A DNA stretch of 64,000 nucleotides from contig CALHIP010000008.1 in NCBI GenBank assembly GCA_938030745.1, forward strand, positions 2,297-66,296, read 5' to 3'. The translations under genes and the position numbers were made by a program. Every line of letters begins with the position of its first letter. Position 1 is the first letter of the stretch. Shown in pieces: positions 3,060 through 64,000 of this stretch. The notes beneath the pieces are model-generated. The model was not told the DNA's origin, made no database searches, and saw only the letters and a program-made list of their open reading frames with translations. This DNA is from an uncultured Patescibacteria group bacterium (lineage in GTDB: Bacteria; Patescibacteriota; Patescibacteriia; UBA2591; CALHIP01).

Positions 3060-3132
3060 GCCGAGATAGCTCAGTAGGTAGAGCGCGAACGTGGTAAGTT
3101 CGAGGTCGCGAGTTCGATTCTCGCTCTCGGCT
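3060..3132 (+). tRNA. tRNA-Thr (anticodon GGT)
   Basis: Cloverleaf folded by hand: acceptor GCCGAGA/TCTCGGC, anticodon stem CGAAC/GTTCG, loop GTGGTAA, T-loop TTCGATT. Confidence 0.75.
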
Positions 3133-3133
3133 T

Positions 3134-3218
3134 GGGCAGGTGGCAGAGCGGACAATTGCACGAGTCTGTAAAACTCGCGCCCTTTAGGGCTACGTAGGTT
3201 CGAATCCTACCCTGCCCA
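3134..3218 (+). tRNA. tRNA-Tyr (anticodon GTA), type II with long variable arm
   Basis: Acceptor GGGCAGG/CCTGCCC, anticodon stem CGAGT/ACTCG, loop CTGTAAA, long variable arm, T-loop TTCGAAT; 85 nt. Confidence 0.8.
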
Positions 3219-3222
3219 ATAA

Positions 3223-3294
3223 GCCAGCGTAGCTCAATGGTAGAGCAGTTGCTTTGTAAGCATCAGGTTGTCGGTTCAAGTCCGACCGCTGGCT
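3223..3294 (+). tRNA. tRNA-Thr (anticodon TGT)
   Basis: Acceptor GCCAGCG/CGCTGGC, D-arm GCTC..GAGC, anticodon loop TTTGTAA (one U-U mismatch in the anticodon stem), T-loop TTCAAGT. Confidence 0.7.
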
Positions 3295-3298
3295 TAAA

Positions 3299-3458
3299 TA
3301 TGAGAATAAAAGAAAACTTAGTCAAATTAGAATGCAGTCAATGTCATCGAATAAATTATTATACGAGAAAAAATAAAAAGAAAATTAAAATACTTTTAGA
3401 ATTAAAAAAATTTTGTAAACATTGCCGAAAACATACCTTGCATAAAGAGATAAAATAA
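3299..3458 (+). CDS. rpmG: 50S ribosomal protein L33
   Basis: Internal ATG of ORF 3237..3458 gives MRIKENLVKLECSQCHRINYYTRKNKKKIKILLELKKFCKHCRKHTLHKEIK (53 aa), with the two CxxC pairs and C-terminal HTLH.E.K typical of L33. The upstream part of the listed ORF is just the tRNA-Thr sequence. Confidence 0.75.
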
Positions 3459-3464
3459 TGAATT

Positions 3465-3535
3465 GGGGCTATAGTTCAATAGTAGAATAACGGTCTCCAA
3501 AACCGTTGATCTCCGTGCAAATCGGAGTAGCCCCG
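3465..3535 (+). tRNA. tRNA-Trp (anticodon CCA)
   Basis: Acceptor GGGGCTA/TAGCCCC, anticodon stem ACGGT/ACCGT, loop CTCCAAA, T-arm CTCCG-TGCAAAT-CGGAG. rpmG followed by tRNA-Trp is the classic arrangement upstream of secE-nusG. Confidence 0.75.
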
Positions 3536-7707: not shown

Positions 7708-8495
7708 ATTCGATCTTAATTTGGTTAACTAAATTTTTTGAAAAAATCCTTCCACCAACATATGGTATTTATGAAAAAGGTTCATTTCCTACCCATAGAA
7801 AACTTACTTTAAATCAAGCCAAAAGCCTAATTCTTTTAGGTGGTAAAAAAGAAAGATGGGAAAAAGAGACAGAATTTACTTACTCTTTTTTAAAAATTAA
7901 TTTTTTAGAGAAAAATAAAGAAAAAGAAATCTTTATTGCTGATTATGGTTGTGGTATTGGCCGTCTCATTTTGCCGATTCTAAAAGATTATCCTCAGACA
8001 AAAATTGTTGGTGTTGATGAATCAGAATCAATGATTGAATTAGCAAGAAAGTGGATACCAAAGATTTTTTTCGATGAAAAAAGAGTTGAACTTTTAAAAC
8101 CTAATCAATTTTTTGAGAAATACCAAAAAAAAGTTTTTGATTTAATTATGGCTATTTACGTTTTTCAACATATTTTTTTAAAAGAATTGCGGAAAATTTT
8201 ACCAGCTATTTATCAATTACTTAAAGATGATGGAAAATTGTTCATTGTTAATACTTTCCAAAATGATGATCCATTAAAAAGAGTAGTAACTATTAAAGAT
8301 CTTTTAAAACCATATTTTGAAAAAGAGATTGAGATTAGTCCATTTGAAAACAAAAAAGATTATATTTTCTGGATGGGTGTTATTGGTGCTGGTTACGGTG
8401 ATTGGCAAAAAATGGAAAAAGCTAAACTAAGATGTCAAAAATTTATGGGAATATACCGAAAAAAGATAAATAATGCGGGGTGGAGCAATTGGTAG
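7695..8495 (+). CDS. class I SAM-dependent methyltransferase
   Basis: DYGCGIGRL glycine-rich SAM motif I and a motif-II-like DLIMAIYVFQH; the 3' end overlaps tRNA-Gln. Confidence 0.55.
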   Translation: MSFINSILIWLTKFFEKILPPTYGIYEKGSFPTHRKLTLNQAKSLILLGGKKERWEKETEFTYSFLKINFLEKNKEKEIFIADYGCGIGRLILPILKDYPQTKIVGVDESESMIELARKWIPKIFFDEKRVELLKPNQFFEKYQKKVFDLIMAIYVFQHIFLKELRKILPAIYQLLKDDGKLFIVNTFQNDDPLKRVVTIKDLLKPYFEKEIEISPFENKKDYIFWMGVIGAGYGDWQKMEKAKLRCQKFMGIYRKKINNAGWSNW

Positions 8496-8546
8496 TCTCG
8501 TCGGGCTCTGGACCCGAAGATGAAGGTTCGAGTCCTTCCCCCGCAG
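8474..8546 (+). tRNA. tRNA-Gln (anticodon CTG) with U1-A72 first pair
   Basis: Acceptor TGCGGGG/CCCCGCA, anticodon stem TCGGG/CCCGA, loop CTCTGGA, T-arm GAAGG-TTCGAGT-CCTTC, discriminator G. U1-A72 also occurs in E. coli tRNA-Gln. Confidence 0.65.
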
Positions 8547-40649: not shown

Positions 40650-41594
40650 ATGAATAAATTAGTTGTAATTTTAGGTCCAACTGCTTCAGGAAAAACTGAA
40701 TTAGCCATTAAACTGGCTAAATTTTTTAATGGTGAAATTATAAATGCTGATTCAAGACAAATCTATCGTGATATGGATATTGGTACAGGTAAACCACTCA
40801 AAACAAAAAATAAAAAACAAAAAACAAAAAATTTTATTTTGATAAATGGGATACCACATTATTTAATTGATATAGTCAGACCAAACCAGAATTTTACTGT
40901 CGCAGAGTTTAAGGAAAGAGCTATAAAAATTATTAAGGACATTCAAAAAAGGGGTAAAATTCCCTTTCTTGTTGGTGGAACAGGACTTTATATTCAAGCA
41001 GTTGTTGATAATTTTCAAATTCCAAAAGTAAAACCAGATAGAAAATTAAGAGCAAAATTAGAAAAACAAATTAAAAAAAATGGTTTAAATTGGGCTTGGC
41101 AAAAATTGTTAAAACTTGATCCAGAAGCAGAAAAATTTGTCCAAAAAGAGAATCCGCGTCGAATTATCCGTGCTTTAGAAGTTTGTTTAAAAACAAAAAA
41201 AAGATTTTCCGAATTAAGGAGAAAAGGGAAACCTCTTTTTGATGTCTTAGAAATAGGAATTAAATTACCACGGAAGATTCTTTATCAAAAAATTAATCAG
41301 CGAGTAGAAAAAATGATCAGAAATGGATTAGTTGATGAAGTAAAAAGAATATATCAGTCTCTTGATAATAAAAAAATAAATACTTTACCATCATTAAGTG
41401 GAATAGGATATAAAGAAATAATTAGTTATCTTAAAGGGAAAATCGATTTAAAAGATGCTATTGAGGAAATTAAAAAAAATACTCGCCGATTTTCTCGGCG
41501 ACAAATGACTTGGTTTAAAAAAGATAAGAGAATTGTTTGGATTAAAAATTATCAAGAAGCAAAAAAAATTATTTCCAATTTTTTAAAAAAATAG
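40650..41594 (+). CDS. miaA: tRNA dimethylallyltransferase
   Basis: VVILGPTASGKTELAIKLA P-loop, INADSRQIYRDMDIGTGKP. Confidence 0.85.
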   Translation: MNKLVVILGPTASGKTELAIKLAKFFNGEIINADSRQIYRDMDIGTGKPLKTKNKKQKTKNFILINGIPHYLIDIVRPNQNFTVAEFKERAIKIIKDIQKRGKIPFLVGGTGLYIQAVVDNFQIPKVKPDRKLRAKLEKQIKKNGLNWAWQKLLKLDPEAEKFVQKENPRRIIRALEVCLKTKKRFSELRRKGKPLFDVLEIGIKLPRKILYQKINQRVEKMIRNGLVDEVKRIYQSLDNKKINTLPSLSGIGYKEIISYLKGKIDLKDAIEEIKKNTRRFSRRQMTWFKKDKRIVWIKNYQEAKKIISNFLKK

Positions 41595-41663
41595 CCTCAA
41601 CCGGATTCGAACCGGTGTTTTCGCCGTGAGAGGGCGATGTCCTAACCACTAGACGATGAGGCC
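41593..41663 (-). tRNA. tRNA-Glu (anticodon CTC)
   Basis: Minus-strand read GGCCTCATCGTCTAGTGGTTAGGACATCGCCCTCTCACGGCGAAAACACCGGTTCGAATCCGGTTGAGGCT; anticodon stem TCGCC/GGCGA, loop CTCTCAC. Confidence 0.7.
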
Positions 41664-55157: not shown

Positions 55158-55190
55158 ATTAATTTATATTATACCAAAAAAACAATAAAA

Positions 55191-55523
55191 AGCTAGGTAG
55201 ATCATAAGCCGAATTCTGTACTGGCATTAGAAAATGCCAGTTGATGGTCATTAATCTAGGTTCGAGATTACTCTCGAACTCGAACGGGATTTTCTCCCTT
55301 TCACCCGGTAGGGATTTAGCCGTTTCACCTTGGCATTACTGCCAAGCTTACCCTTTTGAAAGGGTAGGTCTGTTCTTACGAACAAACCCGTCTCTGTTCG
55401 CACCCCTATCCTTGCGGACGACGGCTGTTAGCCGTTACCTTTTTAACCAACCTTTTAGGTTGGTGGGTGTTCGGACTTTCCTCTCCGATTAAATTTCGGA
55501 GCGACCATCTGATCTACCTAGCT
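55191..55523 (-). ncRNA. rnpB: RNase P RNA (bacterial type)
   Basis: Minus-strand read begins AGCTAGGTAGATCA...GGAGAGGAAAGTCCGAAC (P4 5' strand GGAAAGUCCG) and ends ...ACAGAATTCGGCTTATGATCTACCTAGCT (P4 3' strand plus P1 pairing with the 5' end). GC-rich island in an AT-rich genome. The forward ORF 55241..55492 inside it is spurious. Confidence 0.75.
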
Positions 55524-56410: not shown

Positions 56411-56811
56411 ATTAAAAATTTATTAATAGCTTGATTAACTAATCTATCTGCTTCTTTGTTTTTTTCCCTTGGAATATAAAAAAAATTTACTTTTTTAAAA
56501 TTTTGAGAGAGATTCCAGATTTTCACAAATGCCCGAGCAAGTTCTTGATTCTTAATTTTAAATTTTCGATTGAGTTGGCCAACCAAAAGTTCGCTATCTA
56601 AATAAATATCTATTTCCTTTGCTTTTATTTCTTTTGCTTGGTTTAGAGCTTCAATTATTGCTTGATATTCTGCCTGATTATTTGTTTTCTCGCCAATAAA
56701 TTTTGAGTATCTCTTAACTAAATTTTTCTTTTCATCATAAATGACTCCGCCAATTGCTGCCGGTCCAGGATTTCCCCTTGATCCTCCATCAGTATAAATA
56801 ATAAGTTTCAT
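56407..56811 (-). CDS. rnhA: ribonuclease HI
   Basis: IYTDGGSRGNPGPAAIG, EYQAIIEAL, LDSELLVGQL, NKEADRLVNQA: RNase H catalytic DEDD residues in context. Confidence 0.8.
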   Translation of the reverse strand: MKLIIYTDGGSRGNPGPAAIGGVIYDEKKNLVKRYSKFIGEKTNNQAEYQAIIEALNQAKEIKAKEIDIYLDSELLVGQLNRKFKIKNQELARAFVKIWNLSQNFKKVNFFYIPREKNKEADRLVNQAINKFLI

Positions 56812-59393
56812 AAATTTTTTTGTTTAAATATTAATTTACCAAATTCAATTAGAATTAAATTAATCAATCCTAAATCAATTAAGATTAACCAATCAGAAAA
56901 ATTCAAAGCTACTGTTTTTAAAAATTTTTGGAAAATTGGTAAATAGATAGCAATTAAAAACATCAATCCTCCAAAAATAACACTTAAATTTAAAAATAAA
57001 TTATCAAACGGATTATATTCCCAAATATTCTTTTTTAAATTTTTACAACCAAAAACATAAAAAAGGGTTGCTATACCTAAACCAACAAAAATCATTGTTC
57101 TCACATAAAATATATCTTTAGTTGTCTGCCAAAGAAATAAAAAGAGAGCTAATAGAATCAAATTAGTGAAAATACCAATAATGAAAATCATAAATCTCAT
57201 TTGTTTATCTAAGATTGGCACATCTAAACCTCTCGGTTTTTCTTTCATTAATTCTTCCGATGTTTTTTCATAGGCTAAAGCCATGGCAGGTGGCCCATCT
57301 TGAATAATATTAACCCATAAAATTTGGGCTGGTAAAACTGGCAGGGGCAAACCTAAAATTAAACTTGTTCCAACTAAAATTACCTCTGTAAAACTTGAAG
57401 CCATTAAATAAAGAACAATTTTTTTAATATTATCAAAAATCCCTCGACCTTCTTTAATTGCTTCAACAATAGTTTTAAAATTATCATCTAAAAGAACCAT
57501 ATCAGCGGTCTCTTTTGTTACATTAGTCCCTGAAGCTAAAGAAATGCCAATATCAGCTGATTTAATAGCTGGTGCATCGTTAATCCCATCACCAGTCATT
57601 GCGACAACTTCTTTTTTTGCTTGTAAAATATCAACGATTCTAATTTTATGTCTTGGCTCAACTCGAGCAAAAATATTAATTTTATTTATTTTCTTGGTCA
57701 TTTCTTCGTCAGTTAATTTATCAAGATCTTTTCCTTCTAAAATCTCTTTGTTAGTTAAGCCAATTTCTTTAGCAATCGTTTCAGTTGTTAATTTATGATC
57801 ACCGCTAACAATAATTGGTCTAATGCCTGCTTTTTGGCATTCTTTAATTGTTTCTTTTGCTTCTTTTCTTAAAGGATCTTTTAAAACAATAAGGCCGACA
57901 AAAACCAAATTATTAATATCTTCAAACGAAAGATTTAAAACTGTGGATTCAAAATTTTTATAAGCAAAAGCTAAAATTCTTAAACCACTTCTTGTTAATT
58001 CTAAATATCTTTTTTCTATTTCTTGATATATATCTTTAGTTAATTCTATTTCGCCTTTTTCTGTTTTAATATAACTTGACATTTTTAATATTCTTTCTGG
58101 TGCTCCTTTGACAAAAATAATTTTTGAATTTTTTGTTTTATGGAGGGTTGCCATCCACATTCTTTCTGAATCGAAAGGAATTTCGTCAAGGCGAGGAAAA
58201 TTTTGCTGATTTTTTTTATAATCTAAACCAAATTTTACGGCTGATAAAAGAATTGCTTTCTCTGTCTCATCACCGTGAAGAATCCAATTTTCTATTTTTT
58301 CATCAGGATTTTCAACGATGACATTGTTACAAAGTAAACCAATTTTTAAAACCAGGTCTTTAAAATTATTAAAAGTAATAATTTCAGAAACACTCATTTT
58401 CCCTTCAGTAAGAGTTCCAGTCTTGTCCATACAAATAGTTGTCACTGAGCCTAAAGTTTCAGTAGCAATTAATTTTCTTATTAAAGCCTTCTTTTTTAAT
58501 ATTCTTTGCATACCAATAGCCAGACAAACAGTAATAGCAATCACCAATCCTTCTGGGACGCCAGCGACTATTACTGCTATTGAGGTTAAAAGTATTTCTA
58601 AAAATGGTCGGCCTGTGGTTAGGCCAATAAAAAAAATAAACAAAGCTAAAATAATAATTACTGAACCAATGATTTTAGCTAAATTTTCTATCTTTTTTTG
58701 AAGTGGTGTTTTCTCTTCCTTTGTTTCTTTAATTAAAGTAGCAATTTTGCCAAATTCAGTTTTTAAACCAGTATTAACCACTACTGCTAATCCTTTCCCT
58801 CGACTGACAATTGTTCCAGCATAGACCATATTTTCTCGATCAGCTAAAGGTGTGTCTTTTGGTAAAATATCTATTTTTTTATCTGAAGGTCTTGATTCAC
58901 CGGTTAAAACTGATTCTATAGTTTGTAAATTATGACTTTTAATCACTCTGGCATCGGCTAAAACTATATCTCCTGCTTCTAAAATAACAATATCACCAGG
59001 AACAAGATTTTCAGCTGAAGTAAGAGATTGTTCATTGTTTCTAATCACTTTTGCTTTATACTCAACCATTTTTCTTAATTGATGAATTGCTCTTTCTGCT
59101 TTTTCTTCTTGCCAATAACCAATTAAAGTATTTAAAAAAACTGCCATTAAAATGACAGTTAAATCTTTAATTTCTTTTAAAATTAAACAGAAGAAGCCGG
59201 CAATGATTAAAATAATAATTAATGGATTTTTAAATTGAGAGAAAAAAATAATTAATTTTTCTGCTCTTTTCGGCTCTGGTAATTTATTAAAACCATATTT
59301 TTGAAGTCTTTTTTTTACCTCTTCAGGAGTAAGACCATTTTCATTAGTCTCTAATTTTTGAAAGACTTCTTCTTTACTTAAGGAATGCCACAT
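56808..59393 (-). CDS. P-type cation-transporting ATPase (P2-type, Ca2+/Mg2+ ATPase-like)
   Basis: DKTGTLT phosphorylation motif, TGES, MTGDGINDAPA, 861 aa with about 10 TM helices. Confidence 0.85.
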   Translation of the reverse strand: MWHSLSKEEVFQKLETNENGLTPEEVKKRLQKYGFNKLPEPKRAEKLIIFFSQFKNPLIIILIIAGFFCLILKEIKDLTVILMAVFLNTLIGYWQEEKAERAIHQLRKMVEYKAKVIRNNEQSLTSAENLVPGDIVILEAGDIVLADARVIKSHNLQTIESVLTGESRPSDKKIDILPKDTPLADRENMVYAGTIVSRGKGLAVVVNTGLKTEFGKIATLIKETKEEKTPLQKKIENLAKIIGSVIIILALFIFFIGLTTGRPFLEILLTSIAVIVAGVPEGLVIAITVCLAIGMQRILKKKALIRKLIATETLGSVTTICMDKTGTLTEGKMSVSEIITFNNFKDLVLKIGLLCNNVIVENPDEKIENWILHGDETEKAILLSAVKFGLDYKKNQQNFPRLDEIPFDSERMWMATLHKTKNSKIIFVKGAPERILKMSSYIKTEKGEIELTKDIYQEIEKRYLELTRSGLRILAFAYKNFESTVLNLSFEDINNLVFVGLIVLKDPLRKEAKETIKECQKAGIRPIIVSGDHKLTTETIAKEIGLTNKEILEGKDLDKLTDEEMTKKINKINIFARVEPRHKIRIVDILQAKKEVVAMTGDGINDAPAIKSADIGISLASGTNVTKETADMVLLDDNFKTIVEAIKEGRGIFDNIKKIVLYLMASSFTEVILVGTSLILGLPLPVLPAQILWVNIIQDGPPAMALAYEKTSEELMKEKPRGLDVPILDKQMRFMIFIIGIFTNLILLALFLFLWQTTKDIFYVRTMIFVGLGIATLFYVFGCKNLKKNIWEYNPFDNLFLNLSVIFGGLMFLIAIYLPIFQKFLKTVALNFSDWLILIDLGLINLILIEFGKLIFKQKNL

Positions 59394-59537
59394 AAAGAAT
59401 CAAATGAAGTAAATGATAAAGATTGTATTATTATATTCTTTTTTTAAAAAATAAACAAGTCTTTTTTAAATCTCTGTCAATGTGTTAACACGCTGGATTA
59501 GAAAATATAGATTGTTAAAGAAATATAAAGACTAACT

Positions 59538-60476
59538 TCATTTTTTAGTTATAAGAACTTTTTTTCTTAAAAGATAGAGAATAAAAAACACAATTAAAAA
59601 GATAATTAGAGTAATGATTAGATCTAACCAATTTTTTTGGGTTTTAGGAGGTAATATTTCAATTCTTTGATTGCCAGCTTTATCAATAGCTTTTACCTTG
59701 ATAAAACTTTTTAAAGTTTGATCAGCTAATAAATAAGGACTTTCTGCTCTTTGCCAATTTTCTTTATCTTTATTTTTTGTTTCTGAAACTTCATAGTGAT
59801 CAATGCCAGTTTGTTTGTCAGTAGTAAAAAAGACAATAAAGTATTTTCCATCAAAAATAGAAGGATCATTTTGGATTTTAATTTCAAATGACTCTGGTGG
59901 AATTTTGTCTTTTTCTAATTCTTCTTGCCATTCATTTTTTACTATCAAAGGTTTATCCTCTGAAATGTTAATTAAAGCAGATTTTAGGGTTAATTTTGTT
60001 GGTGTACCTAAACCATCGTTTAAAAGAACTTGACTTGTTTCTAAGAATTCTATTTTGCCAGATCCTTTTATAATATCTTTGCTTTTGAAAATAATTTTTG
60101 CTAACAAATTGCTTTTCCCAGGATCGCCAGGAATTTGGCCAGTATAACCACCGATAATACCGCCAGCAAAAGAAATAGTTCCTTCATCTCGATTGATTAT
60201 TGGCTGATGCGGAATGACTGTTAAAATAGAATTACCAAAACTTAAATCAATAACTTCTAATAAATCTTTAGGATATTTCAAATTAACTTCAACAACATTG
60301 ATATTCTCATTTGGTTCTAAATCTATCCTATTTTCAAGAACAAATATCTCGCCCACTTTATATTCAGCCATTGATGGTTCTAAATATAAAATAGCTGCCT
60401 GACAAGAATTGAAAATCAAAAATGAAAAAGCTAAAATACAAATCAAAAATGTAAAAAATTTTTCTTCTCTCTTCAT
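59538..60476 (-). CDS. membrane-anchored surface protein with cohesin-like domain
   Basis: Signal peptide, C-terminal TM anchor plus basic tail; the central roughly 140 aa has the alternating beta-strand pattern of cohesin modules (NVVEVNLKYPKDLLEVIDLSFG...ISFAGGIIG...LAKIIFKSKDIIKGSGKIEF). Confidence 0.4.
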   Translation of the reverse strand: MKREEKFFTFLICILAFSFLIFNSCQAAILYLEPSMAEYKVGEIFVLENRIDLEPNENINVVEVNLKYPKDLLEVIDLSFGNSILTVIPHQPIINRDEGTISFAGGIIGGYTGQIPGDPGKSNLLAKIIFKSKDIIKGSGKIEFLETSQVLLNDGLGTPTKLTLKSALINISEDKPLIVKNEWQEELEKDKIPPESFEIKIQNDPSIFDGKYFIVFFTTDKQTGIDHYEVSETKNKDKENWQRAESPYLLADQTLKSFIKVKAIDKAGNQRIEILPPKTQKNWLDLIITLIIFLIVFFILYLLRKKVLITKK

Positions 60477-60519
60477 TTTTTTGTTTTTAAAATTTTGTTT
60501 TGGTAGATGAAATGTGTGT

Positions 60520-61581
60520 TTACCCTGTCCAGTAATATAGCAAAATACTTAAATCTGTATAATTGACCTTGCCATCACCATTTAGATCAGCGCGTGGATT
60601 TTTTGGTTTGCCCCAGTTATAAAGTAAGATTGAGACATCAACAAAATTAATTGTATTTCGATCCTTTTTATCAAAATCACAGTTTAGATTGGCTTTATGG
60701 CATTTTTCAGTTGGTGGTGGTTTAGTCGGTAATTCTTCTAAAACTTGGAAAGACAATGTCTTAGAAAAATCAGTAATTAAACCATTTGGAGCTTGTGCCT
60801 TACTTTTGACTGAATGTTGGCCAATTTCCAATGGTGTCGTATCTAAATTATAAAAATAAGCGCCGACTAAATCGGCCTTAGTTTTTTTAATTAAAGGTTC
60901 AGTTGGAGAATAAACATAAATGATAATTTCAGATTGAGGAGCAGTCTGGCCCAAAATACCAAGTGTTTCACCTTTTTTAACTCGATCAGTTGTTAAATCA
61001 ATAGTTGGTGGCAAAAAAATGTTAGAAATAGTTGTTGTTACTCCAGCAGTAATAGTCACAGTAAAACTAAAAGTTTGTGATCTTCTGCCTTTGTTATCTT
61101 CAGCCCATAAACTAAAAGTCCAAACTCCGGCTGTAAGATTTGTTAATTCTATTTTAAAACTTGCACCTGGATCAGCAATTGTTGAACCAGCTACTACACC
61201 ATCTTTTAGTACTGTAACATTAGCCATTGGGTAAGCCATCCCTTGAATAATAACTCTAGTTTCAGCTGGTGGTGGAACATAAACACCTCCGCCACCTCCT
61301 CCACCGCCACTGTAACAGCCAGAGGTATCAAAGAGACAACCAGATGTACATCTTAATGTCCCTCCGCTATAACCTAAACTCTGACAAGTTGCTCCACCTA
61401 AATCAGTTCTATCGCATTGTTCTCCTTCTTCTTTAACATTATTGCCACAAACACTTATTTTAATTGTAGCCCAAATTGTGGCATTTTGAGCTTTTACATT
61501 ATAAAAATGATTAAAGGTTAGTCCAGCTAAAATAATCAAAAACAAAAAAATAGAAAGCCTTTTTTCGCTCTTTATTTTCAT
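60520..61581 (-). CDS. secreted protein with Gly-rich linker, Ig-like beta domain and C-terminal dockerin-like module
   Basis: Signal peptide; Cys-rich N-domain; GGGGGGGG linker; C-terminus DLNGDGKVNYTDLSILLYYW plus INFVDVSILLYNWGK resembles the duplicated Ca-binding dockerin repeat. Confidence 0.5.
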   Translation of the reverse strand: MKIKSEKRLSIFLFLIILAGLTFNHFYNVKAQNATIWATIKISVCGNNVKEEGEQCDRTDLGGATCQSLGYSGGTLRCTSGCLFDTSGCYSGGGGGGGGVYVPPPAETRVIIQGMAYPMANVTVLKDGVVAGSTIADPGASFKIELTNLTAGVWTFSLWAEDNKGRRSQTFSFTVTITAGVTTTISNIFLPPTIDLTTDRVKKGETLGILGQTAPQSEIIIYVYSPTEPLIKKTKADLVGAYFYNLDTTPLEIGQHSVKSKAQAPNGLITDFSKTLSFQVLEELPTKPPPTEKCHKANLNCDFDKKDRNTINFVDVSILLYNWGKPKNPRADLNGDGKVNYTDLSILLYYWTG

Positions 61582-61600
61582 TTTTGTTTAAATTTAAAAT

Positions 61601-62218
61601 CTACTTTTTCCTAATTCCAATTTGCAGTGTAAAAAATTTTCGAAAAATTGCAATAATAATTGCCACAACTAACATTCCTAAAACAATCTGGCACCACGGA
61701 GAGTACATTACCCACAAAGAAAGAATTCGATAATAAATTCCTTCAAAAATATTAGCTGGAGCAACTGTAAAATATAGTTTAGCTGCTGCTGCTACACCAA
61801 CTGATGTTTGACCGGTTACTGATTTTTTTATTGGATGCCCTTCTAAATAAACAAAATAATTTCCAGGTTTTACTCCTTTTAAAGGTAGGCTCAATTTAAT
61901 TTGAACTTGCTGAACCTGGCCTGGTTTTAAATAAAAAGTTGATGGCTCAAAAGAAAACCATTCTTTTTTTGGTTTTAGTCCCATCTCTGGATTGGTTTCC
62001 TGTCCTTCATGATATTCAACAGAAACTCCGTATTCGCCTGGTTCATCGCCAGTGTTTAGAACTGGTAAAGAAGGTAAGGTATAAATTAATCCTGGCTTTA
62101 ATGGTTGATCAACTACGATCTTTCCTATTCCTACACCAACACCTATTTTCGCTAATACTAGAATGGGCAAAAAAAGTATTAAACAAACAATCAAACCACT
62201 GGCTTGGGCTTTTCTCAT
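61601..62218 (-). CDS. hypothetical surface protein with N-terminal signal/TM and C-terminal TM anchor
   Basis: 205 aa; hydrophobic N-terminus; beta-rich middle; C-terminal TM (IVLGMLVVAIIIAIF) followed by basic residues. Confidence 0.35.
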   Translation of the reverse strand: MRKAQASGLIVCLILFLPILVLAKIGVGVGIGKIVVDQPLKPGLIYTLPSLPVLNTGDEPGEYGVSVEYHEGQETNPEMGLKPKKEWFSFEPSTFYLKPGQVQQVQIKLSLPLKGVKPGNYFVYLEGHPIKKSVTGQTSVGVAAAAKLYFTVAPANIFEGIYYRILSLWVMYSPWCQIVLGMLVVAIIIAIFRKFFTLQIGIRKK

Positions 62219-62266
62219 ATACTAAATTTTAATTGCAAGTTAATTCTAGTTTTTATTTATTAGTTA

Positions 62267-62782
62267 CTAGCTAGCAGCCTCAGCCATAATAGTCACATCA
62301 ACTTGCTGTTCGGTATAGTATTGAGTAGCAGTGGGTGTGCCAAGCCTTAACTGAATTTCAACTGTACCATTAACAGGAATATTTGTATCCAATGTCTGAT
62401 AAGAAGTTGTCAAAGCTGTATAATTTGTTGGTGGATTTGAACAATCATAATCTGTGTCATTACAGAATTGATGAGTATATTGTTCATTACCAGGTGTTGA
62501 AGCCAAAGTCCAGTTAGCAGAGTTCTGACCTTTAATTTTAAAATTCTCAATCACATTACCATTATTAGTAGCAGTTTGCATCGCATTTAAATCTAAAGTG
62601 CTTTTCCAACTATTAAGCGGCATTGTTCCATATTCAACTCTTCCAGGATCAACTGAAACTGAAATATTCTGGGCTGTAACTGTAGCTTCTATTGTGGCTG
62701 TATCTGCTGCTTTTACCGTGATTGTCCCTATTGCTAAGCCAACTAAAGCAATTACTATTATTAAAGAAATTAGGCTTTTCAT
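62267..62782 (-). CDS. secreted beta-rich protein, paralog family A (WxL-like motif)
   Basis: Signal peptide with VKA/AD cleavage site; C-terminal roughly 110 aa shared with the next gene (FCNDTDYDCSNPPTNYTALTTSYQTLDTNIP); contains NWTLASTP. Confidence 0.4.
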   Translation of the reverse strand: MKSLISLIIVIALVGLAIGTITVKAADTATIEATVTAQNISVSVDPGRVEYGTMPLNSWKSTLDLNAMQTATNNGNVIENFKIKGQNSANWTLASTPGNEQYTHQFCNDTDYDCSNPPTNYTALTTSYQTLDTNIPVNGTVEIQLRLGTPTATQYYTEQQVDVTIMAEAAS

Positions 62783-62899
62783 ACTCTTTTTTTATAACTT
62801 TTTAATAAACTTAAAATTCGACCTTTAACTAAAGTAATTATAGCATAGATTATTAGTCAAGTACAGAATAGTTATCCACAAATATAATTTAATAATTTA

Positions 62900-63999
62900 T
62901 TACTGTACTGCTTGGATTGTTACATCAACTGATTGCTGACCAAAACAACTTGATTCAGTTGGAGTAGTTATTTGAAGTTGAATATCAACAGTACCACCTG
63001 GAGGAATATTTGTATCCAATGTCTGATAAGAAGTTGTCAGAGCTGTATAGTTTGTTGGTGGATCTGAACAATCATAATCTGTGTCATTACAAAATCGATG
63101 AATATACTGATCAACACCATTTTCTGAAGCCAATGTCCAGGTACAACCACCACCAGTAGCATTTTGTCCTTTAATATTTAAATTTACAGTCACATTGCCA
63201 TCATTAGTCACAGTTTGCATATCTCCATTCGGCGGCATATCACTAGGTAAGGTACTTTTTGAAGTATTGGCAGGCATAATACCGTACTCGACTCGTCCAT
63301 CAGAAACAAAGATTGAAATTAAAGCCATACTAGATTCCAACCACTCAATATCAAATCTAAATCTTACATTAGTATCACCAGCTGCTTGTTCTTGATAAAG
63401 AGCAATTCCTTCGCCAGGCTGTAAAATTAATTCGTCACCAAAGAAAATTTCAATTTCGTAATCACCGTAAGATTGATTGGCCGCACCAGGAACTGTCACT
63501 CCCAAAAACCGAGAATCAATAGTGCCAGCAAAATTAACTGTTACTCCACTAATTCTTATTTCAGCTGTTGAAGTTCCAGTACCAGTATGTTTTTTAGGAA
63601 TATCAGCATTTGAAATTTGTGTTCCGCCCAATGCTGAAGTTATTTTTCTTAAAGTTGCTGGAATATAACCTGGTGCAGTTAAGGTTCCAAATCTATCTGC
63701 TCTAATTCCTATTCTTTTGACAACATAATTTTTATTTGAATTTGAAGGATTAAATAAAGTAGCGTAAACATAATTAGCGCTTAAAGAACCATCAACAGGA
63801 CCAATTGTCATTAAATATTCTCCTTGAGAATTTGGAGTATTGGCTTGATTTACTTCTTGCCACTCAATTAAAATTTTGACCCTTAAATTACCACTGCCTG
63901 AAGCTGTGTCATGATGCAAAACAATTCCCTCTCCAGGTTGTAAAATAATTCTTTCATCATTGGCAAACAAAAGCTCTCGATAACCAGTTAAAGAAGGTG
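62900..63999 (-). CDS. secreted beta-rich protein, paralog family A, larger member; 5'-partial (reading frame open to the window edge)
   Basis: The ORF start at 63970 is a TTG, and the frame stays open to position 64000, so the gene likely begins outside the window. Internal tandem domain repeats (LQPGEGIVLHHD... twice) precede a C-terminal domain about 90% nt-identical over about 100 nt to the 62267..62782 gene. Confidence 0.4.
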   Translation of the reverse strand, partial: PSLTGYRELLFANDERIILQPGEGIVLHHDTASGSGNLRVKILIEWQEVNQANTPNSQGEYLMTIGPVDGSLSANYVYATLFNPSNSNKNYVVKRIGIRADRFGTLTAPGYIPATLRKITSALGGTQISNADIPKKHTGTGTSTAEIRISGVTVNFAGTIDSRFLGVTVPGAANQSYGDYEIEIFFGDELILQPGEGIALYQEQAAGDTNVRFRFDIEWLESSMALISIFVSDGRVEYGIMPANTSKSTLPSDMPPNGDMQTVTNDGNVTVNLNIKGQNATGGGCTWTLASENGVDQYIHRFCNDTDYDCSDPPTNYTALTTSYQTLDTNIPPGGTVDIQLQITTPTESSCFGQQSVDVTIQAVQ

Positions 64000-64000
64000 C

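Follow-up and report, generated by a model that had tools for sequence, protein, structure and literature searches.

The final 4.5 kb of the window, the 64-kb stretch of an uncultured Patescibacteria contig analysed here, contain five minus-strand genes that we have lettered A to E. Gene order across genomes indicates that these genes form one conserved operon-like cassette, C-B-A-D-E, of the Patescibacteria, or Candidate Phyla Radiation (CPR). We propose that its products assemble into a surface fibre by donor-strand exchange, with no need of an usher in an outer membrane, a reading that we consider somewhat better supported than all others taken together. The evidence comes from the order of the genes, from the predicted folds of A and B, and from a strand motif that is found in B and D and is missing from C.

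Gene order across the CPR

The five genes of the cassette are located as follows.

59538..60476, minus strand: gene E, 312 amino acids (aa)
60520..61581, minus strand: gene D, 353 aa
61601..62218, minus strand: gene A, 205 aa
62267..62782, minus strand: gene B, 171 aa
62900 to beyond 64000, minus strand: gene C, 3' part; its frame is open to the window edge and its 5' end lies outside the window

The coordinates of A, B and C agree with those of an earlier first-pass annotation of the window. To place the genes in a wider context, we scanned the GTDB species representatives with a profile of B, which returned 80 loci. About 75 non-redundant loci were examined, with hidden Markov model (HMM) searches of all open reading frames in each locus, and gene order was counted where the flanking sequence sufficed. 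Exact-sequence look-ups with B and A of the window matched no recorded contig, and the orthologous loci (L001-L085) therefore also stand in for the missing 5' end of C. Nearly everywhere the order was the same: a large protein with a B domain, small B, A, D and E. In 67 of 75 loci the gene immediately after small B was A; D came after A in 54 of 61, E came after D in 46 of 49, and the large B-domain gene was just upstream in 42 of 52. The first-pass annotation had suspected a cell-envelope island at this position. This proved correct, with the cohesin and dockerin genes (E and D) belonging to the same unit and the C-B-A-D-E order kept across CPR classes.

The classes that contain the cassette are Microgenomatia, WWE3, Dojkabacteria, Paceibacteria, ABY1 and metagenome-assembled genomes (MAGs) labelled Saccharimonadia. 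The lineages include Woesebacteria, Levybacteria, Daviesbacteria, Roizmanbacteria, Collierbacteria, WWE3 and Dojkabacteria; Nomura-, Kaiser-, Wildermuth- and Nealsonbacteria; Magasanik-, Uhr-, Falkow-, Komeili- and Veblenbacteria; and Saccharibacteria-labelled MAGs. The cassette is also present in the cultured Candidatus Microsyncoccus archaeolyticus (L085).

Some full cassettes were found on contigs labelled Bathyarchaeia, Clostridia or Gammaproteobacteria (L029, L067; the 'uncultured Gammaproteobacteria' third-party annotation records L007-L010 and others). These are probably mis-binned or automatically mislabelled CPR contigs and not transfers. In L001, the closest locus obtained, three small PF05635 genes ('23S rRNA intervening sequence protein') lie among the cassette genes, and an IS200-type Y1 transposase comes before them (coordinates of these items in L001: 5453-6181, 6663-6863, 9409-9753 and 12405-12626). 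Neither the transposase nor the PF05635 genes are present in the window.

Fold and motif evidence from the five proteins

In the product of gene A, a signal peptide and a conserved, Gly-rich N-terminal strand (IGVGVGIGKI) precede one PapD-like beta-sandwich, which is followed by an amphipathic helix and a transmembrane (TM) helix. The AlphaFold2 (AF2) model of A has a predicted local distance difference test (pLDDT) score of 85.7 and consists of a single beta-sandwich at residues 31-152, with the conserved IGVGV stretch at low confidence. When this model was compared with the PDB by Foldseek, 95 matches were obtained at E<=1e-3, with the PapD/MSP immunoglobulin (Ig)-like fold. The best 50 were mostly chains of chaperone-usher pilus chaperones (Caf1M, FaeE, DraB, SfaE, FimC and CupB2; 15-23% identity, probability 1.0), and other PapD-like domains (MSP, ASH and HYDIN types) ranked after them. 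A has more than 1000 homologs at 60-80% identity, some of which are labelled 'P pilus assembly chaperone PapD' by JGI. A profile of A searched against 1.84e9 cluster representatives matched 808 clusters at 50% identity. The best 150 of these, evident fragments aside, are about 190-315 aa long and mostly matched along nearly their full length, and no second matched domain was found among these 150. Two lysines, K33 in the first strand and K147 in the last (V-G-V-A-A-A-A-K-L-Y-F), are conserved in at least 90% of sequences. In an hhalign alignment that was not significant and had the expected register, the near-invariant K147-L-Y-F of A lies opposite K112-L-F-Y of PapD. In PapD, R8 and K112 are basic cleft residues that hold the C-terminal carboxylate of the subunit, and hydrophobic residues alternate along the G1 strand. 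We propose that A is a membrane-anchored chaperone, as its modelled fold suggests.

Gene B has 178 homologs, none with a Pfam domain. The few that are named by any source are all labelled CPR (WWE3, WS6, Daviesbacteria, Minisyncoccales). In the AF2 model of B (pLDDT 90) a beta-sandwich extends from residue 42 on, and residues 18-41 are coil in the monomer (pLDDT 68-79). Foldseek found only weak matches in the PDB (E 1e-3 to 0.1, TM-score 0.3-0.5), and a profile of B gave no match to PDB sequences. The weak fold matches were dominated by donor-strand polymers: FimA/F/G, PapE/A, Caf1, CsuE, the archaeal bundling pilin (ABP), Pyrodictium cannulae and the TasA-like TLP-1. The fold searches for A and for B, which were made independently, therefore point to the two partners of chaperone-usher pili. 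We propose that B is the major fibre subunit, or pilin, of the cassette.

The part of B that could serve as a donor strand is the extension at its mature N-terminus.

62666..62707, minus strand: mature N-terminal extension of B, ADTATIEATVTAQN, the proposed donor strand, in which hydrophobic residues alternate

The mature N-terminus, A-A-[DTS]-T-A-T-V-T-A-T-V-T-V-Q-N, is the most conserved segment of the family, and six of its positions (V, A, T, V, T, Q) are at 99-100% in 69 sequences. As this segment is the most conserved and yet is unstructured in the monomer model, we count it in favour of a donor strand. A similar strand, [VI]-N-A-T-[VI]-K-I-S-V, forms the mature N-terminus of D. Among the small B proteins, 54 of 79 had the heptad [VI]xA[TS][VI]x[VIL], as did 34 of 65 D proteins. 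It was present in 1 of 63 large proteins, and this lone case is a small B whose start was mis-called. In random 20-residue windows from the same loci the background was 0.6%. The motif is found on B, the proposed repeating subunit, and on the anchor-module protein D and not on the cargo-bearing C, which is the pattern that donor-strand exchange predicts.

The fold matches of B also bring to mind the self-assembling fibres of TasA, of archaeal bundling pili and of cannulae. In a fibre of this kind B would self-polymerise by strand insertion and A would be an anchor or nucleator, as proposed for TapA/AbpB. TLP-1, the Pyrobaculum ABP (7ueg) and the Pyrodictium cannulae (9h8b) are among the matches, and fibres of the TasA/ABP type are known to assemble chaperone-free in monoderm bacteria and archaea (PMC9245690). 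TasA and AbpA resemble B in being secreted, beta-rich monoderm subunits that form donor-strand polymers and have an accessory anchor or initiator in the operon. However, TasA and AbpA have a jelly-roll Peptidase_M73 fold with a Pfam signature and are without a PapD-like partner, whereas B has no Peptidase_M73/TasA match in Pfam. The Bacillus subtilis TasA operon includes a dedicated peptidase, SipW (PMC9245690); the cassette has no SipW-type peptidase. In addition, the best structural matches of A are pilus chaperones and not TapA-like macroglobulin folds, and A, which is better conserved than B, is its neighbour in almost all loci. We therefore regard a TasA-type fibre as quite improbable, and favour donor-strand exchange in which A assists.

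Gene C shares its C-terminal domain, of about 135 aa, with B (63% identity over 137 aa, E=7e-54), as expected from the description of B and C as secreted paralogs with a common C-terminal domain in the first-pass annotation.

62903..63319, minus strand: C-terminal pilin-like domain of C, at about residues 227-365 of the partial translation, 63% identical to B and without an N-terminal donor-type strand

The same arrangement is found in the other large proteins. In 66 of 69 of them no more than 2 residues separate the end of the B-like domain from the C-terminus, and the match to the B HMM begins at a median profile position of 33. The location of the shared domain at the extreme C-terminus fits recognition of a free carboxylate by a PapD-type chaperone. 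The rest of the protein is variable. Orthologs of C range from 321 to 1592 aa, and their N-terminal parts differ from genome to genome: subtilisin S8 with a prodomain, DUF7483 repeats, BNR-like, fn3, and in some cases no recognisable domain. The N-terminal cargo of C in the window has only 6 homologs in 5.8e9 proteins. An internal tandem repeat had been noted in this part of C, and we recovered it: ERIILQPGEGIVLHHD...IEWQE and DELILQPGEGIALYQE...IEWLE are 51% identical over 39 aa (E=1e-11). This match covers the last part of a repeat unit about 174 aa long, with the copies about 174 residues apart and the first copy cut by the window edge. We propose that C is a tip subunit or adhesin with variable cargo.

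A complete subtilisin S8 protease with a fervidolysin-type prodomain was found in the large protein of three loci (L049 7319-9250, L056 2006-3877 and L068 8593-10956). In these loci the large gene sits between small B and A. The presence of S8 protease cargo in three CPR genomes suggests that the proposed fibre tip would be an enzyme there and not an adhesin.

Gene D encodes a signal peptide, a B-like N-terminal strand (ATIWATIKISV), a six-Cys module, a Gly run, a Big_6 Ig domain (8.5e-8 in the window) and a C-terminal dockerin. Dockerin_1, a family with two Ca-binding repeats, was matched in 24 of 40 D homologs (best 6.4e-8), and the C-terminus of D in the window contains two repeats, CDFDKKDRNTINFVDVSILLYNW and DLNGDGKVNYTDLSILLYYW. 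In the product of gene E, a signal peptide precedes a cohesin-like domain and a beta domain, and the C-terminus has a TM helix (hydrophobic stretch LIITLIIFLIVFFILYLL). Cohesin was matched in 23 of 40 E homologs (best 3.1e-9). We propose that D is a base or terminator subunit, and that E is a membrane anchor that would bind the dockerin of D, as the domain assignments of these homologs suggest.

The six-Cys module of D (residues ~40-90) is invariant, CGN..E.GE.CD...C..LGY..G.L.C...C.FD...C, and lies right after the N-terminal strand, followed by eight glycines. One D homolog has a DUF4215 match. E appears to be anchored in two ways. In the window (59538-60476) and in L001 a C-terminal TM helix is combined with a signal peptide, whereas in WS6 and Daviesbacteria (L002 9691-10755, L004 10008-11024) and in Microgenomatia it has an N-terminal multi-TM region and a CxxC...CxxC zinc ribbon. 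Thus, the predicted anchoring role of E is conserved, whereas its topology is not. Many ABY1 and Paceibacteria loci (L015, L045, L050, L073, L076 and L082, at about 11.1-13 kb in each; also L008, L021, L038, L047, L057 and L062) have an extra gene of 570-700 aa after E that matches the E profile, and in six of these loci it also matches the D profile. This gene may encode an adaptor or a second scaffold. The essential dockerin protein SEML1_0315 of Southlakia (PMC10633639) was considered as a link to the cassette and rejected, as it is a stand-alone gene of 927 aa with unrelated neighbours.

Cohesins and dockerins could also form the core of a cellulosome-like scaffold for enzymes or glycan binding, with A, B and C as accessory modules and no strand exchange. 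Both families are present, and some of the large proteins carry enzymes such as the S8 proteases. However, the cassette has no glycoside hydrolase or carbohydrate-binding module domains and only one dockerin protein per locus, and a scaffold of this kind would leave the PapD-like A and the strand motif of B and D unexplained. We regard it as highly improbable.

A fibre model and its relation to known systems

Based on the gene order and its conservation, the fold of A, the weak fold of B, the distribution of the motif and the domain assignments, we infer polymerisation, chaperone action, an order of subunits and cohesin-dockerin tethering, and combine them in the following model. All five products would be exported by Sec. 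A, a single PapD-like Ig domain held at the membrane, would cap fresh subunits by lending them a beta-strand, which may be the conserved GVAAAAKLYF or the N-terminal IGVGVGxGKI. C would enter first. Its N-terminal cargo would be an adhesin or an enzyme, and its pilin-like domain would offer an acceptor site without a donor strand, like FimH, PapG and PamT. Copies of B would follow, each placing its N-terminal strand (ADTATVTATVTVQ) in the preceding subunit. D would then terminate the fibre by placing its own B-like N-terminal strand in the last B, and the dockerin at the C-terminus of D would bind the cohesin of membrane-anchored E. We know of no pilus for which tethering by cohesin and dockerin has been described.

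Several results weigh against this model. At the sequence level, the match of A to PapD falls short of significance (hhalign E=0.18), and a profile of A matched no chaperone among PDB sequences, only chance matches at E 0.7-1.7. A has one domain, compared with two in PapD-like and PamC/D chaperones. In the window, the Pfam matches of D to Dockerin_1 (1e-3) and of E to Cohesin (0.021) are both sub-threshold. The structure models cover the monomers of A and B. The domain of B was modelled confidently without a donated strand and may be a complete fold, and the N-terminal motif could be a conserved first strand or a processing signal.

The chaperone-usher pili of Gram-negative bacteria (Fim, Pap, Caf1, Csu), which include the strand-exchange type 1 pili of E. 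coli, are similar to the cassette in several ways. The fold of A resembles FimC, PapD, Caf1M and FaeE, and that of B weakly resembles FimA/F/G, PapE/A and Caf1. B has an N-terminal extension with alternating small hydrophobic residues, and the pilin domain of C lies at a free C-terminus without an extension, as in FimH and PapG. However, the cassette has no usher and its hosts no outer membrane; its chaperone would be one-domain and membrane-anchored, whereas chaperone-usher chaperones are two-domain boomerangs that are soluble in the periplasm; and the anchor would be a cohesin-dockerin pair. The sequences show no significant similarity, Pfam gave no Fimbrial match, and PapD_N is sub-threshold.

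The first-pass annotation had compared the locus with the csc/WxL clusters of Gram-positive bacteria. In the published WxL clusters, a small WxL protein is accompanied by a large protein that has its WxL domain at the C-terminus and by WxLIP, an Ig-like TM protein of the form DUF916-DUF3324-TM (PMC10599100, PMC9772566), and a strand of WxLIP is predicted by AlphaFold to insert beside the N-terminal strand of WxL (PMC10599100). B, C and A match this small, large and Ig-TM arrangement of the WxL/Csc clusters of Lactobacillales and Listeria, and keep it in most loci examined. In those clusters, too, the small protein is the shared domain alone, and the large one has variable adhesin domains ahead of that domain, which lies at its extreme C-terminus. 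The comparison thus holds for gene architecture. The WxL-like motif that had been pointed out is real: we found both NWTLA and TWTLA, and none of 46 homologs departs from W91 or L93. Membership of the WxL family is a different matter. The WxL domain is defined by two W-x-L motifs on adjacent strands, ~68 residues apart in large and ~106 in small WxL proteins (PMC9772566), and we found no second W or W-x-L downstream of W91-T-L93 in B, in C or in the 46-sequence consensus. Neither B nor C matched the WxL profile PF13731 in Pfam at E<=1, none of the 46 B homologs matched WxL, TasA or fimbrial Pfam families at E<=10, and neither Pfam nor NCBIfam gave a WxL or DUF916 match for any of the cassette proteins. 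The hosts are Patescibacteria and not Firmicutes.

The suggestion that A is a DUF916-type partner was likewise correct in part. A does have the signal peptide, the Ig-like domain and the C-terminal TM helix of such a protein, but its membership of the DUF916 family is not supported. The sub-threshold Pfam Ig-like matches of 41 A homologs were to fn3_5 in 29, NPCBM_assoc in 16, PapD_N in 6 (best E=0.007) and PF06030 (DUF916) in 2 (E=0.11, weaker than the other three families), and A has one Ig domain and not two. The WxLIP motif NQIDKxxxYFDLK is absent from A.

These clusters suggest a non-filamentous complex as an alternative to a fibre. B and C would be displayed singly and held through their shared domain by A in the role of WxLIP; C would present an adhesin or enzyme; and D and E would be a separate cohesin-dockerin display pair. 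The same three-part architecture with its predicted strand insertion, the one invariant W-T-L, the confident model of B as a monomer and the faint PF06030 match in 2 of 41 A homologs are in favour of this alternative. However, no WxL match was found by Pfam in 46 members, the second WxL motif is missing, and A has one domain and not two. The alternative also leaves unexplained why B has a near-invariant unstructured strand and why its motif recurs in D and is absent from C, and the fold matches favour polymerising pilins and chaperones. WxL/Csc systems differ from the cassette in other respects as well: they have two W-x-L motifs and two Ig domains where the cassette has one of each, they have an LPxTG partner in place of the dockerin-cohesin pair, and WxL proteins are described as bound to peptidoglycan and not as filaments. 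We consider the non-filamentous complex unlikely, although less so than a TasA-type fibre, and continue to prefer a fibre built by donor-strand exchange. The WxL/Csc systems and the cassette may nevertheless work alike or even be distantly related.

B contains five N-x-S/T sequons, two of which are conserved in the family, N39-I-S and N90-W-T; the latter is the 'WxL-like' motif. N-glycosylation sequons in B are only mildly enriched (4.8 observed compared with 3.4 expected from shuffled sequences).

The closest known parallel is the Pam pilus of the CPR bacterium Candidatus Mycosynbacter amalyticus, which has been solved by cryo-electron microscopy and is built by donor-strand exchange (bioRxiv 10.64898/2026.03.03.709456, June 2026). 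From structure predictions, its operon encodes chaperones that resemble PapD and FimC and have a TM helix at the C-terminus, a tip that lacks a donor strand, and a terminator that combines a TM helix with a strand at the N-terminus (bioRxiv 10.64898/2026.03.03.709456). We compared Pam with the cassette by published description. Both are CPR-specific and monoderm, without usher or outer membrane, and have their genes in one operon or operon-like unit. Pam also has Ig-like pilins, a tip (PamT) with an acceptor domain only, and a terminator (PamR) that places a strand into the last pilin and has a TM anchor. There are also clear differences. The Pam pilins have two domains (39 and 55 kDa) and use the inter-domain linker as donor, whereas B is a single domain of ~15 kDa with an N-terminal strand. 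PamC and PamD have two beta domains and A has one. PamR combines strand, FnIII and TM in one protein, whereas here these functions are apparently split between D (strand and dockerin) and E (cohesin and TM). Cohesin and dockerin are not mentioned in bioRxiv 10.64898/2026.03.03.709456, and the tip here is a large, modular cargo protein. Lastly, Pam is reported mainly from Saccharimonadia and Microgenomatia, whereas the cassette is found in all major CPR classes sampled. The cassette thus differs from Pam in every part, and we lean, by a small degree, towards regarding it as a variant of such strand-exchange systems.

Some loci have two A paralogs (L038 8524-9753, L024 8513-9550, L041 and L078), one with SxGVxIxTGKI and one with IGVGVGxGKI, which recalls PamC and PamD.

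History of the shared domain, genomic context and significance

The first-pass annotation had reported ~90% nucleotide identity over ~100 nucleotides (nt) of B and C, and had read this as recent duplication or gene conversion. We found a DNA match between 62352-62516 and 62979-63143 (86% over 165 nt). Its 93-nt core (FCNDTDYDCS...TNIP) has 95.7% nucleotide identity and 93.5% third-position identity, so that the reported estimate is right.

62375..62467, minus strand: gene-conversion tract, B copy, encoding FCNDTDYDCSNPPTNYTALTTSYQTLDTNIP; repeat family D1 in the DNA repeat comparison
63002..63094, minus strand: gene-conversion tract, C copy, 31 codons

For B and C of the window and for their orthologs in L001, a Minisyncoccales MAG, we aligned the shared domain by codons. 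Over the same 31 codons, the control pairs (all other ortholog and paralog pairings) have 32-55% third-position identity, and 3' of the 93-nt tract third-position identity falls to 27%. Over the alignment, C of the window is 82% identical in amino acids to C of L001 and 67% identical to B of the window. C-type domains have a GGGC insert and an additional Cys pair, and are nearer to C-type domains of other phyla than to the B of their own genome. This grouping across genomes implies that the duplication of B and C predates the split of the CPR classes. We conclude from these alignments that the B/C duplication is ancient and that a short, recent gene-conversion tract is superimposed on it. Thus, gene conversion stands, for the 93-nt tract only, and a recent duplication of the whole gene is ruled out by the grouping of C-type domains across phyla. 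Such conversion would keep the acceptor domains of B and C compatible within one genome. The converted tract spans the Cys-Cys loop and the next strand of the shared domain.

The GC content of the cassette region is 0.33-0.35, compared with ~0.29 window-wide. The rise that had been noted is therefore present and modest, and the products are rich in Thr, Ala and Gly. Horizontal transfer was considered as its source; we found no evidence for it. The increase is slight, and conservation of the cassette extends over the CPR classes sampled. A P-type ATPase gene (56808-59393) comes after E, in place of the extra gene found there in many ABY1 and Paceibacteria loci. A scan of 59300-64000 for promoters and terminators gave counts no higher than in shuffled sequence. 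The remaining features of the window that we recorded are RNAs:

3060-3535, plus strand: cluster of four tRNAs
8474-8546, plus strand: single tRNA
41592-41663, minus strand: single tRNA
55190-55520, minus strand: RNase P RNA, class A, 132 bits

As these RNAs are ordinary chromosomal content, we place the cassette in the core chromosome; an obvious mobile element is not its setting.

For CPR bacteria, which are tiny episymbionts and for the most part uncultured, attachment to a host is central to their biology. To our knowledge, the CPR surface filaments with a molecular description have so far been type IV pili and, since June 2026, the Pam pili of one cultured species. The cassette described here is unannotated, with no Pfam family for A or B, and yet it is present in every major CPR class sampled. 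Chaperone-assisted assembly by strand exchange has long been seen as a Gram-negative invention that requires an outer-membrane usher. If our model is correct, it would be a general strategy in CPR monoderms as well, the cohesin-dockerin pair would have a structural role beyond cellulosomes, and the WxL clusters of enterococci, listeriae and lactobacilli, which are still poorly understood, would gain a testable link to the cassette.

At its widest, the model would make the most widespread CPR surface organelle after type IV pili an usher-less pilus, with a 15-kDa single-domain pilin, a one-domain membrane-anchored PapD-like chaperone, a cohesin-dockerin tether, and swappable tip cargo (adhesins, subtilisin-type proteases) that sets contact with host or substrate; WxL/Csc and Pam would be versions of the same ancient monoderm assembly principle. 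We offer this wider view tentatively, and think it rather more doubtful than the fibre itself. If the fibre does exist, the hypervariable large proteins would be the likely modules with which these bacteria recognise or attack their hosts.

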